Positions 11,564 to 28,516 of a stretch of DNA of 64,000 nt are shown piece by piece (position 1 is the first letter of the stretch; the number at the start of each line of letters is the position of its first letter). The DNA is taken from positions 2,275,892 through 2,339,891 of the forward strand of contig OZ253452.1 of assembly GCA_965261425.1 (NCBI GenBank), given 5' to 3'. Under the pieces are notes generated by a model. It had not been told where the DNA came from, made no database searches, and saw only the letters and a program-made list of their open reading frames with translations. This DNA comes from Candidatus Spongiihabitans sp. Its GTDB lineage: Bacteria; Pseudomonadota; Gammaproteobacteria; Arenicellales; Poriferihabitantaceae. The position numbers were made by a program, and so were the translations under genes.

Positions 11564-12229
11564 ATGGCCGTCCCGGTGGTTGCGATTGATGGTCCCAGTG
11601 GCTCGGGCAAAGGCACTATTTCTTTGGCAGTCGCACGACAACTGGATTGGCATTATCTGGATAGTGGGGCGATTTACCGTGTACTCGGCTATCTTGCCGA
11701 AAAGAATCAGATTGAGGTCGCCGATGAAGCGGGATTGATTGATCTGGCACAGAATATCGAGCTTGAGTTCAAGGATGGGGTGGTCTGGCTTCACGGCGAA
11801 GAAATAGGCGATGAAATTCGTACCGAAGAAGCCGGAAAACGGGCTTCAGTGATTGCAGCAGTGCCGCGTGTTCGGGAAAAACTGCTTGTCTGGCAAAGAA
11901 GTCGCGCGCAAGCTCCGGGCTTGGTGGCAGATGGCAGGGACATGGGAACGGCGGTGTTTGCCAATGCCATTTGCAAAATATTTCTCACTGCCAGCGCGCA
12001 GGCGCGTGCAGAAAGACGATTCAACCAGTTGAGAGTCAATGGTTTTGATGTTAGTATCACACGGCTTTTTAAGGAGATTTGTGAACGCGATGCGCGTGAT
12101 GCGGGTCGGGCGGTTTCACCGTTGCGACCTGCTGAGGATGCGATTCTGTTGGATACCACCAATCTGGACATTGAGGAAGTGGTGGCAGAAGTGATGACTC
12201 GGGTCAGAAAACGTCTTGTCAGTGGTTGA
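11564..12229 (+). CDS. cmk: Cytidylate kinase (intact resident copy)
   Basis: The listed ORF opens at 11363 inside aroA. An in-frame ATG at 11564 gives MAVPVVAIDGPSGSGKGT (P-loop) with YLDSGAIYR, typical of Cmk. Confidence 0.9.
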   Translation: MAVPVVAIDGPSGSGKGTISLAVARQLDWHYLDSGAIYRVLGYLAEKNQIEVADEAGLIDLAQNIELEFKDGVVWLHGEEIGDEIRTEEAGKRASVIAAVPRVREKLLVWQRSRAQAPGLVADGRDMGTAVFANAICKIFLTASAQARAERRFNQLRVNGFDVSITRLFKEICERDARDAGRAVSPLRPAEDAILLDTTNLDIEEVVAEVMTRVRKRLVSG

Positions 12230-12406
12230 TTCTGGCTTGTGTCGGGGTTTTATGGATAGGGCTTATGGGTAATATTGAACGCGACAATGTTCTGAAATTG
12301 GAGACAAAAAGCATAAGGTGAATGATTTGTACTATGCGGATAGCGCAGATTATTTGAATTTTAACGATATTTTATTTTACATACCTGATTTTGATTGCTC
12401 TTTGAC
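12012..12406 (+). repeat. Left copy of a perfect 395-bp direct repeat (last ~218 bp of cmk plus 177 bp downstream)
   Basis: Base-for-base identical by eye to 28122-28516 (offset 16110). Confidence 0.9.
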
Positions 12407-12434
12407 TGCTCACGGTGATGTGGGCGCGACGCAA

Positions 12435-12500
12435 GTGCGACGAAATTTAGCGAAATCTAAAAAAGAAATTAAAAACTTGGAACGCTCAAGATTGGCTTAA
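12435..12500 (+). pseudogene. Diverged 3' fragment of a lapA-like gene
   Basis: It encodes ..VRRNLAKSKKEIKNLERSRLA*, compared with the resident LapA C-terminus ..KVRRNLSKAKKELKVLKSPRLVI* (30800-30877). The nucleotide similarity is obvious but imperfect. Confidence 0.45.
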
Positions 12501-12584
12501 TCGTTATTCGTTATTCGTTGACTGTTAAACTGGAAAATATGGAGGATAGAAATAGAAAAAATCAGGAGTGTTTGTATTGCAACT

Positions 12585-12792
12585 TTGTCGATGATTGTAT
12601 TTTTTACATCACAGTCATTGGCGGCAGATTCGCCTTGGGCGACTTGGGTTTATGAGGAGGCGACATTGCCAGATGGGACAACGGCCACAACGAATCATGA
12701 AAAAATAATTTCCGGAAACCTAGCAAACGTTCGATTAGCGGTTTCTGCCGACACAAATGATATACCATACAATCATGTAACGTTCCAGGTTC
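12585..12792 (+). pseudogene. 5' part (hydrophobic signal-like N-terminus) of a split PI-PLC-like phosphodiesterase / ricin-lectin gene
   Basis: The reading frame continues exactly at 18477 after the 24-bp repeat (..YNHVTFQV | PHNSYEH..). In place it terminates 5 codons after the junction. The start codon is uncertain (TTG 12585 or ATG 12591). Confidence 0.7.
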
Positions 12793-13165
12793 AGTCTTTT
12801 CCAATATGAAATGAGTCTGGGTATACATGCAACCGTTTATAATTTGCGGTCGAGAAATGGGTGCCCGATAGGACAACGGATTTGGCGGAGTGTATGAAAT
12901 CGGGGTCGATGTCATACACGGTCAAAGCCATGTCGGCACAGTTATCCCGATAGAATATGAGCGGGAAGGTTTCTTTGTCACGGATTCCCAGAATGACCAG
13001 CACCGTCAGGCGTTCCAGATCAATCTTCACCCCTTGTGTGACGACACCCGTAGCCGTGTTGGTCAGGCTTGCACCGATATACTTGGCGAAGCTCGACACA
13101 TCCTCCAGCCGTCCGCCAACCTGTTGGTCATAAATATCTACCGAGGAACGCTTGATGGAGATTAA
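12791..13165 (-). pseudogene. iolC: N-terminal relic of a 5-dehydro-2-deoxygluconokinase (IolC, PfkB family) gene
   Basis: The reverse strand reads LISIKRSSVDIYDQQVGGRLEDVSSFAKYIGAS.TNTA...ERLTVLVILGIRDKETFPLIFYRDNCADMAL...VLSGTHFS. This resembles the IolC N-terminal third, with an internal gap, and it is truncated at the 12792/12793 junction. Confidence 0.5.
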
Positions 13166-27099: not shown

Positions 27100-27869
27100 G
27101 CATGTCAAATCGGGAAATCGCTAATCGACTAAAAGTAATGGTTAAATTAGCTTCGGAGGCTGGGCAACTTGCATTTGATCTGCGAGAAGCAGGAGTTGAT
27201 GTCAAGAACAAAGGTTTGCAGGATTTTGTTACCGATGCCGATATCCAAGTAGAATCGGAAATAGTCCAGAAAATCAGGCAATACTTTCCTGACGATGGTA
27301 TCTTTGCTGAAGAAAACGCCAATACTGTTGTCGCTTCAGGGACTTGGGTTATTGACCCGATAGATGGAACAACCAATTATGCTTCGGGTTCCAATCTTTG
27401 GGCTATCTCTTTGGCATGGATTCGCGAGGGACAAGTTGAATGTGGGGCCATTTTTGCTGCTGATCGGTGCGAAGTGCTGTCAGCTCAACGTAATCAAGGG
27501 GCATTTCTAAACGGTAAACGCCTACTTAGCGATCGCAACTTTAGCAACCTTCATCCCATTTATCTGGGTTGGTCTAACCGAACGGATCACAGCGATTATC
27601 TTGAACTACAAAAACGTATATACCGTGCAGGTTATAGCGATCGAAAACTTGGCTCTGCAGCGATTAGTTTTGCACATGTGGCACGTGGGGATGCGTGCGC
27701 GTTTTTCGAAGCACACTTGAACAGTTGGGATTGCTTAGCAGGACTTATTCTTTGCCAGGAAGTGGGCTGCGAGACTAATATTCAAAACATTGATCTCCGA
27801 AATGGCGGGCGATCAACCGTTATCCATTCGAGTTGTGATGTCGCTATGAAAGCGATTTTTCATGATTAA
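27096..27869 (+). CDS. Inositol monophosphatase family protein
   Basis: Metal-binding motifs are FAEE...WVIDPIDGTTNY and WDCLAG. The start overlaps the ATPase stop (ATGA). Confidence 0.85.
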   Translation: MSMSNREIANRLKVMVKLASEAGQLAFDLREAGVDVKNKGLQDFVTDADIQVESEIVQKIRQYFPDDGIFAEENANTVVASGTWVIDPIDGTTNYASGSNLWAISLAWIREGQVECGAIFAADRCEVLSAQRNQGAFLNGKRLLSDRNFSNLHPIYLGWSNRTDHSDYLELQKRIYRAGYSDRKLGSAAISFAHVARGDACAFFEAHLNSWDCLAGLILCQEVGCETNIQNIDLRNGGRSTVIHSSCDVAMKAIFHD

Positions 27870-27974
27870 GACAACTTCGCTTATAATCAGGGTAGAAAAT
27901 TCTGCAAAGGAAATGTCCAAAGTAAATAGAACTGTCCAGATAATCAACACATAAACGGTCCGTTTTGAATGATG

Positions 27975-28008
27975 CCGGTGGTTGCGATTGATGGTCCCAG
28001 TGGTTCGG
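27975..28008 (+). pseudogene. cmk: Short relic of a second (variant) cmk 5' end
   Basis: CCGGTGGTTGCGATTGATGGTCCCAGTGG is identical to 11573-11601. It is preceded by its own ATGATG, which differs from the resident ATGGCCGTC start. Similarity stops after ~34 nt. Confidence 0.6.
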
Positions 28009-28063
28009 TCAAGTTCTGTTTTGCTCAATGTAATTATCTCCTCTGTCATAACCCCTCCTGAAT

Positions 28064-28122
28064 AAGTCAAAAGGGGACATTTTAGCTTTGGACAAAGGGG
28101 ACATTACTGCTTTGGGCTAACA
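28064..28122 (+). repeat. Junction repeat copy 2, with an internal partial tandem duplication
   Basis: AAGTCAAAAGGGGACATT[ttagctttggacaaaggggacatt]ACTGCTTTGGGCTAACA. It ends exactly at the start of the right 395-bp repeat. Confidence 0.85.
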
Positions 28123-28516
28123 AAGACGATTCAACCAGTTGAGAGTCAATGGTTTTGATGTTAGTATCACACGGCTTTTTAAGGAGATTTGTGAACGCGA
28201 TGCGCGTGATGCGGGTCGGGCGGTTTCACCGTTGCGACCTGCTGAGGATGCGATTCTGTTGGATACCACCAATCTGGACATTGAGGAAGTGGTGGCAGAA
28301 GTGATGACTCGGGTCAGAAAACGTCTTGTCAGTGGTTGATTCTGGCTTGTGTCGGGGTTTTATGGATAGGGCTTATGGGTAATATTGAACGCGACAATGT
28401 TCTGAAATTGGAGACAAAAAGCATAAGGTGAATGATTTGTACTATGCGGATAGCGCAGATTATTTGAATTTTAACGATATTTTATTTTACATACCTGATT
28501 TTGATTGCTCTTTGAT
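28122..28516 (+). repeat. Right copy of the 395-bp direct repeat; contains a non-functional cmk 3' remnant (28122-28339) and the native rpsA upstream region
   Basis: Identical to 12012-12406. The listed 66-aa ORF 28139-28339 is the Cmk C-terminus. Confidence 0.9.

Follow-up and report, generated by a model that had tools for sequence, protein, structure and literature searches.

In a 64,000-nt stretch of contig OZ253452.1 from Candidatus Spongiihabitans sp. (the window; all coordinates are window positions unless a contig is named), a perfect 394-bp direct repeat lies at the two ends of a 16-kb segment that separates the cytidylate kinase gene cmk from rpsA, which codes for ribosomal protein S1. 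Comparison of the two ends shows directly that the cmk end of the cmk-rpsA-ihfB-lapA block was once directly duplicated over a greater length, and that this repeat is what survives of it. The segment is a recently assembled accessory mosaic rich in insertion sequences (ISs) and made of metabolic genes, mostly related to inositol or phosphoinositides, and its repeat does not represent the ends of a mobile element but is a pseudogene stump carrying a predicted promoter. We regard this structure as firm and infer from it the mechanism proposed below.

The intact cmk (11564 to 12229, + strand; Pfam Cytidylate_kin, 238 bits) ends with its stop codon at 12229, and the database annotation of an identical protein (P0001, 236 aa) places the start at a TTG at 11519. 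Upstream, the genes run gyrA-pheA-tyrA-aroA-cmk, the order described in an earlier note on this DNA except that the serC included there is absent. Downstream, on the same strand, lie rpsA (28566 to 30242), ihfB (30258 to 30611), and the resident lapA (30614 to 30877), identified by the Pfam domains S1, Bac_DNA_binding, and LapA_dom. Direct comparison of the repeat copies, 12012 to 12405 and 28122 to 28515 (both + strand), gave 394 matches in 394 positions. The perfect repeat had been given as 395 bp, and its identity held for all but the last base, which is C at 12406 and T at 28516; BLAST lengthens the match to 401 bp with two mismatches. The copies are 16,110 bp apart, start to start, and a perfect repeat of this length cannot have arisen by chance. 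The left copy consists of the last 218 nt of the intact cmk (codons 150 to 221) followed by 176 nt of cmk-rpsA spacer. The right copy consists of the same codons of a pseudo-cmk, with its stop at 28337 to 28339, and the same 176 nt of spacer, and it ends 50 nt before the start of rpsA. Thus, as had been noted, cmk is kept whole and rpsA retains its native upstream region. Rfam and tRNA scans gave no match at the junctions of the segment.

The sequence to the left of the right copy revealed that the repeat is not the original unit of duplication. At junction J2 (27974/27975), the right end of the island is joined to cmk position 11573, which we read as the join point of the duplication, and the following 29 nt (27975 to 28003, + strand) are identical to cmk 11573 to 11601 (29/29). 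This 5' fragment is followed by a 119-bp remnant of an IS1202/ISNCY-family IS (28004 to 28122, - strand), which was recognized by end-to-end alignment with full-length 1,437-bp copies and retains the left inverted repeat (IRL) and approximately the first 18 transposase codons. Its outer end (...GGGCTAACA), the transposase-proximal IRL, abuts the cmk 3' part, and the sequence directly left of the right repeat copy reads ...AAGTCAAAAGGGGACATTTTAGCTTTGGACAAAGGGGACATTACTGCTTTGGGCTAACA. The right repeat is therefore the tail of a broken second cmk, made up of a 5' piece, an IS end, and codons 150 to 221 with the spacer. The picture of an island bracketed by a repeat accordingly stands for the repeat itself, which is real, but not for its role as the original unit. 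The 29-bp piece beside the right copy implies that the original duplication was at least 833 bp long (11573 to 12405), and the left edge of the apparent 395-bp repeat was therefore set later, by IS insertion and by a deletion that would have taken pseudo-cmk codons 14 to 149 and most of the IS. As expected for a tandem duplication, both cmk 11573 to 11601 and 12012 to 12405 are repeated, and the join at 27974/27975 is novel.

Two other interpretations of this edge were rejected. The 5' fragment had appeared to be a 95%-identical foreign cmk allele; its two mismatches (28004 to 28012) turned out to be IS sequence at a TCGG microhomology. The 105 nt before J2 (27870 to 27974) were considered as a diverged aroA-cmk junction, and their alignment scores against the aroA-cmk region were at the level of shuffled sequence, with no homology.

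The right junction was also found in the contig L008 (4,454 bp), which belongs to a different ENA assembly and is 99.93% identical to window positions 26086 to 30536. It runs from the ATPase and inositol monophosphatase genes of the island through the pseudo-cmk and an identical right repeat copy into rpsA. Since this independent contig spans the right junction, that junction is not an artefact of the window's assembly. The earlier note had named an assembly artefact as a possible source of the repeats, and for the left junction, which is seen in the window only, such an origin can be formulated: a 16.1-kb circle, or the haplotype of a second strain sharing the 394-bp repeat, would have been threaded into the chromosome path. 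The genome derives from metagenome assemblies, and the repeats would permit such a mis-join. However, the L008 path runs counter to it, and the contig names of related assemblies are of a long-read style, an inference from naming; long reads easily span 394 bp. We consider this origin very improbable.

Both repeat copies contain a sigma-70 promoter-like block, TTGAGA-17-TAGTAT with an upstream TG, in the 3' third of cmk (12029 to 12057 in the left copy and, identically, 28139 to 28167 in the right copy, both + strand). The right block, 17 nt downstream of the IS end, is the candidate rpsA promoter retained from cmk. When the cmk sequences of five genomes were aligned together with two cmk remnants, the block was nearly invariant, third codon positions included, and is thus conserved beyond coding needs. 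The retained 3' part of the window's pseudo-cmk starts 17 nt upstream of the -35 element, and the homology of the remnant in a second genome (L009, described below) starts 1 to 3 nt upstream of it. In E. coli, according to the account in PMC8565310 (citing Fricke et al. 1995), some rpsA promoters lie within cmk, and a deletion of codons 95 to 142 spares all those known. In the window, the right copy would keep the rpsA promoter or promoters from inside cmk together with the conserved spacer, and the left copy keeps cmk whole, which would explain the persistence of this architecture.

A conserved block is also present in the cmk-rpsA spacer (...GCAGATTATTTGAATTTTAACGATATTT...ATACCTGATTTTGATTG), at 12300 to 12400 and 28410 to 28510 in the window, at approximately 10780 to 10880 in L003, and at approximately 9790 to 9860 in L009. 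It is duplicated in the window and single in the L005/L009 genome, and it may represent a further rpsA promoter or an S1 autoregulatory leader.

The left edge of the island was equally informative. At junction J1 (12405/12406), where the identity of the copies ends, spacer position +176 is joined to the island, and we read this point as a deletion junction. Shortly beyond it, 12429 to 12500 (+ strand) encodes a diverged lapA 3' end (QVRRNLAKSKKEIKNLERSRLA and a stop codon), identified by nucleotide alignment and by tblastn (E = 1.6e-4). The fragment is identical to the 3' end of L009 lapA at 53 of 66 nt (80%), with a local score of 35 against a mean of 16.5 (standard deviation 1.8, maximum 23) for shuffled sequences, and is only ~75% identical to the window's own lapA. 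This fragment at the island's left edge speaks against a plain insertion into the spacer. Chance hardly accounts for an island upstream of rpsA whose first recognizable sequence is the tail of a foreign lapA; donor DNA picked at random would seldom terminate in a member of this four-gene block. This suggests that the accessory DNA once lay downstream of a lapA and arrived by pairing with the resident rpsA-ihfB-lapA. Among the other genes expected from such a duplication, the lapA 3' fragment is in the expected position, but no remains of rpsA or ihfB were found. The earlier view of the segment as one element is not supported, as the 16 kb form a nested mosaic with this lapA 3' fragment at the left end.

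The DNA 3' of lapA varies within this group: a GlnS/GluS-type tRNA synthetase gene (30878 to 32637) comes after the resident copy, lapB occupies this place in L003, L006, and L010, and the lapA of L009 has yet another downstream neighbor. The left promoter-like block and spacer (12029 to 12540) now face the lapA fragment and a PI-PLC-like/lectin gene, so that the first gene of the island would have come under rpsA-type promoters before it was split.

In the nearest relatives, the cmk-rpsA junction is uninterrupted. The closest, L003/L004 (Cmk 82% identical) and L010 (S1 87% identical), have an unbroken gyrA-pheA-tyrA-aroA-cmk-rpsA-ihfB-lapA-lapB order, and cmk also adjoins rpsA in L006 and L007 (74%). 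A scan of genome contigs with Cmk yielded only relatives that were 38 to 47% identical, and exact look-ups of cmk, rpsA, P0001, and the TIM-barrel protein returned no record. Since the closest relatives have adjacent cmk and rpsA, the segment is accessory in the window, as had been proposed.

A second case of a divided junction was found in the L005/L009 genome, whose Cmk and S1 are 75% and 84% identical to those of the window and whose cmk-rpsA gap is 19.5 kb. Its insert is unrelated, with genes for urate and xanthine catabolism, TldD/PmbA, and an IS1595, and no integrase or recombinase is annotated in it. A decayed cmk tail precedes rpsA there as well (L005 10480 to 10809 versus L009 9394 to 9707, 89% identical with indels). 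In the alignment, the spacer insertion points of the two genomes differ by ~100 bp, which indicates that the two events were independent. The same architecture with different cargo makes the pattern recurrent, and it is probably shaped by the promoter inside cmk. Adjoining the L005/L009 cmk remnant are MITE-like repeats of ~145 bp (94 to 99% identical; L009 8263 to 8409 and 8977 to 9127, L005 6390 to 6533 and 17900 to 18051) and a repeated motif of ~40 nt (L009 9224 to 9275 and 9356 to 9398); in this genome, too, mobile elements have eroded the spare cmk.

The occurrence of the same architecture in a genome with a 75%-identical cmk could also mean that the duplication is old, possibly common to the window and L005/L009 lineages, with its copies homogenized by gene conversion, its cargo turned over, and the relatives with adjacent genes having lost it. 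The divergence of the lapA fragment from the resident lapA is what old age predicts, and repeats of ~400 bp that lie 16 kb apart are convertible. Zero mismatches between the copies are indeed compatible with gene conversion as well as with a recent event, as the earlier note had stated. However, the spacer insertion points lie ~100 aligned bp apart, the cargo is unrelated, and the closer relatives L003 and L010 lack an insert. Furthermore, the 29-bp cmk 5' piece is mismatch-free too, and 29 bp is probably too short for efficient gene conversion. The split PI-PLC-like gene and the IS duplications inside the island are also pristine, pointing to recency. Taken together, the absence of mismatches over 394 and 29 bp, the unaltered IS duplications, and the clean break in the split gene indicate recent events, and we regard an old, homogenized duplication as improbable.

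That the flanking repeats are the 3' end of a gene, that the target gene is rebuilt, and that the same junction is used in two genomes would also fit an integrase-type island that entered the 3' part of cmk carrying its own cmk end and has since lost its integrase. This explanation is already largely refuted, and we assign it only a very small probability. A Pfam scan of the 15 main open reading frames (ORFs) of the island detected no integrase or recombinase domain, in agreement with the earlier note, and neither this island nor that of L005/L009 contains such a gene. The repeat is 394 bp long, 100% identical, and includes 176 nt of spacer, with no short att core. The right copy contains a cmk 5' fragment, which is foreign to an attR site, an IS end forms the left edge of the repeat, and the repeat ends differ between the two genomes.

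We therefore favor, tentatively and at no better than an even chance, a duplication of the cmk-to-lapA interval with accessory DNA at the join, trimmed so that cmk stayed whole and the rpsA promoter stayed in place. Accessory DNA lying downstream of a lapA on a related or conspecific chromosome would have paired with the resident rpsA-ihfB-lapA and entered by one homologous exchange, and its far end (27974) would have undergone an illegitimate join to cmk position 11573. Possibly the DNA arrived as a circularised fragment, or the join formed between sister chromosomes. The product would have been aroA-cmk-spacer-rpsA-ihfB-lapA'-island-pseudo-cmk-spacer-rpsA-ihfB-lapA, in which lapA' is the incoming gene. 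A deletion (junction 12405/12406) would then have taken away rpsA-ihfB of the redundant left copy together with the beginning of lapA', leaving only the last ~24 codons of this gene. Later, an IS1202-family IS would have inserted 17 nt upstream of the promoter-like block of the pseudo-cmk, and a deletion would then have removed codons 14 to 149 together with most of that IS. The repeats should still permit RecA-dependent loss of the segment, restoring cmk-rpsA.

Several points weigh against this route. The merodiploid intermediate and the homologous crossover are unobservable, as the proposed deletion would have erased both, and the donor arrangement, lapA' followed by the PI-PLC-like gene, is hypothetical, as it was encountered in no genome, although no search aimed at it was made; our grading of the route reflects these two points. 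The left junction (12405/12406) is backed by the window sequence alone, and the 23 nt between the spacer and the recognizable part of lapA (12406 to 12428) are unexplained. A promoter scan gave no more matches than in shuffled sequence, and the promoter is predicted from its consensus match and conservation. The L005/L009 island contains no fragment of lapA, ihfB, or rpsA that would point to the same route there. Its insertion point leaves the conserved spacer block beside rpsA, so that rpsA could perhaps have been expressed in that genome even without a duplication.

We next describe the contents of the island. The 5' part of a gene for a secreted PI-PLC-like/ricin-lectin protein (12522 to 12792, + strand) is cut by an inner insert of 5.66 kb (12793 to 18452, - strand), which lies between the copies of a 24-bp direct repeat (12769 to 12792 and 18453 to 18476, 24/24 identical). 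Pfam and NCBIfam searches identified in this insert an iolC fragment (12791 to 13099), an amino-acid ABC transporter (ATPase, binding protein, and two permeases), a xylose-isomerase-like TIM barrel protein, and a 3-hydroxyisobutyrate/threonate-type dehydrogenase; the insert terminates in a 68-bp IS palindrome. The right copy of the 24-bp repeat and the 3' part of the PI-PLC/lectin gene (Pfam PI-PLC-C1 and Ricin_B) occupy 18453 to 19795 (+ strand), and the two halves rejoin in frame from 12792 to 18477 (...NHVTFQV joined to PHNSY...). The stop codon of the gene lies within the left 69-bp duplication of the IS described below.

To the right of that IS is a sugar ABC transporter block (21840 to 27150; Pfam), with permeases (21874 to 22692 and 22696 to 23562) and a binding protein (23639 to 24931) on the - strand, and a LacI-type regulator (24977 to 26068) and an ATPase (26065 to 27099) on the + strand. 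This block is 96.6% identical at the nucleotide level over 5.3 kb to part of an inositol-catabolism locus in L012, a contig of 2.65 Mb that belongs to a different organism. An inositol monophosphatase family gene (27096 to 27869, + strand; Pfam Inositol_P, 150 bits) closes the island. The neighbors of the shared transporter block differ between the window and L012, in which only patchy, ~85%-identical inositol monophosphatase remnants (L012 7470 to 7760 versus window 27375 to 27892) are present, between the ABC ATPase and iolD.

An IS1634-family IS with its flanks occupies 19763 to 21786 (+ strand). The IS proper (19832 to 21717, 1,886 bp) contains a transposase gene (19967 to 21619) that scored 360 bits with NF033559 (cut-off 100), is bounded by perfect 16-bp inverted repeats (CCTGACTTCGACGGTT), and lies between perfect 69-bp duplications (19763 to 19831 and 21718 to 21786); the inverted repeats, the duplication, and the transposase score all support the family assignment. 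The transposase had been described as the only one in the segment. It is the only intact transposase gene there, and two IS1202-family remnants had been overlooked.

This IS raises the question of a one-step insertion, in which the 15.6-kb segment would have entered with an 833-bp target duplication (11573 to 12405) made by widely staggered cuts of the IS1634/IS1549 type, the right copy being shortened to 394 bp later. The segment contains an IS of this family with a perfect 69-bp duplication, direct repeats of 8 to 514 bp have been reported for IS1634 and IS1549 (PMC2266710), three direct repeats of unusual length (24, 69, and 394 bp) fall in a span of 16 kb, and the L005/L009 island also has a long duplication. 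However, a search of the window for CCTGACTTCGACGGTTGG (three or fewer mismatches) matched only at 19832, 21701, and 55828, so that neither island boundary has an IS1634 inverted repeat. Positions 12406 and 27974 were inspected for ends of the IS1634 or IS1202 type, none of which was present, and no inverted repeat connects the two. At the left edge of the inner insert (12793), a degenerate 24-mer resembling a right inverted repeat (IRR) was discarded as too weak (12/24 matches, P about 0.008). Moreover, 394 bp is inside the reported range but 833 bp is beyond it, and a one-step insertion leaves the lapA fragment at the island edge as a coincidence. We judge this explanation unlikely. Since the 16-kb segment lacks IS1634 ends, the 394-bp repeat cannot be assigned to the IS1634 transposase.

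The window is rich in ISs. A second, truncated IS1634-family copy is located at 55828 to 56303 and is ~86% identical over the first ~480 bp. Approximately 260 bp past it lies a gene for a 556-aa IS1182/IS5-like transposase (56561 to 58231; DUF772 and DDE_Tnp_1_2), and the truncation may be due to this neighboring element.

An 18-nt core of AAGTCAAAAGGGGACATTTTAGCTTTGGACAAAGGGGACATTACTGCTTTGGGCTAACA, the IS sequence that abuts the right repeat copy, was found in more than 120 metagenome contigs, and the loci collected (L013 to L132) included full-length copies of about 1,437 bp (range 1,420 to 1,440) with 24-bp imperfect inverted repeats starting with TGT (TGTCAACCC... and TGTTAGCCC...). Their transposases are 439 to 450 aa long, and that of the L064 copy scored 479 bits with NF033594 (ISNCY_2; cut-off 250). 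Target duplications of 16 bp were detected in 2 of 18 full-length copies (L094 and L126), and most copies have none. The transposase of the L064 copy, the TGT-starting inverted repeats, and the 16-bp duplications place the element in the IS1202 family, ISTde1 subgroup; the window itself retains only ~18 first codons. An assignment of the GGGCTAACA element to IS1182 was also considered, as a DUF772/IS1182-like ORF adjoins the copy in L003, and was rejected because full-length copies are ISNCY/IS1202 elements.

IRL sites of this family are found in the window at 28004 to 28122, 18388 to 18455, and 48745 to 48783. Comparison of 28066 to 28122 with 18421 to 18455, 48748 to 48783, and L003 3660 to 3700 revealed two forms of the end, a long one in which 24 nt are duplicated internally (GGGGACATT...GGGGACATT) and a short one without this duplication; the full-length copies are of the long form. 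The 68-bp palindrome at 18388 to 18455 is near-perfect and consists of two inverted IRL ends. Rather than an ordinary miniature element, it is probably the mark of a rearrangement, since it joins IRL to IRL instead of IRL to IRR and has no 16-bp flanking duplication. Readings of the palindrome as attC, REP, or a Tn7 end were judged by eye and abandoned once the IS was identified.

Furthermore, we analyzed the flanks of the IRL. TTG was present at +17/+18 in 42 of 111 unique metagenome flanks (38%) against a background of 1.9% per position, and these TTG flanks showed a -10 signal (T 0.62, A 0.71, and T 0.62) after a 17-nt spacer. The copy in the window has exactly the usual spacing of the family between IRL and -35, which independently supports the predicted promoter inside cmk. 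These frequencies suggest that the IS tends to sit 16 to 17 nt upstream of sigma-70-like promoters. We know of no description of promoter-proximal targeting for the IS1202 family, and if confirmed, this would be a new target specificity for it. Two linked claims can be put forward with some reservation, as rather less than an even bet: that the cmk-rpsA junction, owing to its embedded promoter, admits only duplicative rearrangements, and that an IS1202-family element homes to a position 16 to 17 nt upstream of -35. If the first is true, independent lineages would end up with a promoter-bearing cmk stump before rpsA; if the second is true, IS1202-family ends would act as natural promoter markers.

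Outside the island, a SAM-alpha (SAM-II type) riboswitch match was detected at 35767 to 35842 (- strand; 41.5 bits versus a gathering score of 36); its host appears gammaproteobacterial.

Several known systems resemble parts of this locus. Tandem duplications that carry relocated or foreign DNA at their join, and homology-facilitated illegitimate recombination, of which de Vries and Wackernagel reportedly gave an example in 2002, share with the route proposed here one end guided by homology, another joined illegitimately, and a resulting direct duplication of resident sequence around the new DNA. Classical cases differ in replacing recipient DNA, whereas a second deletion step has to be assumed for the window. 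The order cmk-rpsA-ihfB is common to E. coli and the window, and the placement of rpsA promoters inside E. coli cmk is attributed in PMC8565310 and PMC8942017 to Fricke et al. 1995 and Pedersen et al. 1984. The predicted -35/-10 block of the window is likewise in the last third of cmk (codon ~155 of 221), compatible with the deletion of codons 95 to 142 as reported in PMC8565310. In contrast to E. coli, the window has the cmk tail with its predicted promoter duplicated, one copy serving cmk and the other rpsA.

Islands in tRNA, tmRNA, or guaA-type sites share with the window repeats derived from the 3' end of a gene, an intact target gene, and predicted excision between the repeats. They differ in that the segment has neither an integrase nor a short core site, its repeat is a decayed gene copy with a 5' fragment, and its cargo is a patchwork of chromosomal metabolic genes. 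For the internal IS, the 69-bp duplication is within the 8 to 514 bp reported for IS1634 and IS1549 (PMC2266710). The IS1202-family element matches the ISTde1 subgroup, for which 24- to 26-bp imperfect inverted repeats starting with TGT and 15- to 17-bp duplications are described (Siguier et al., bioRxiv 10.1101/2022.12.17.520857): it is ~1.44 kb long, has 24-bp TGT inverted repeats and a transposase with helix-turn-helix and rve-type domains, makes 16-bp duplications, with many copies lacking any, and has its target recognized on the IRL side. It departs from the family in that its apparent target lies just upstream of sigma-70 promoters and not at Xer sites, and only end remnants are present in the window; target specificity is reported only for the subgroup with 5-bp duplications (bioRxiv 10.1101/2022.12.17.520857).

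The window thus offers a clean, datable case of a conserved gene junction opened without harm, in which the overlap between cmk and a predicted promoter of the essential rpsA is resolved by duplication and the spare copy decays to the promoter. For annotation, where a perfect repeat flanking an island proves to be a pseudogene stump, the island should not be taken for a mobile element. Compared with the systems above, this is a fresh example of known processes with a recurrent twist, in which two occurrences with unrelated cargo suggest a rule rather than an accident, and the targeting by the IS1202-family element is possibly new.

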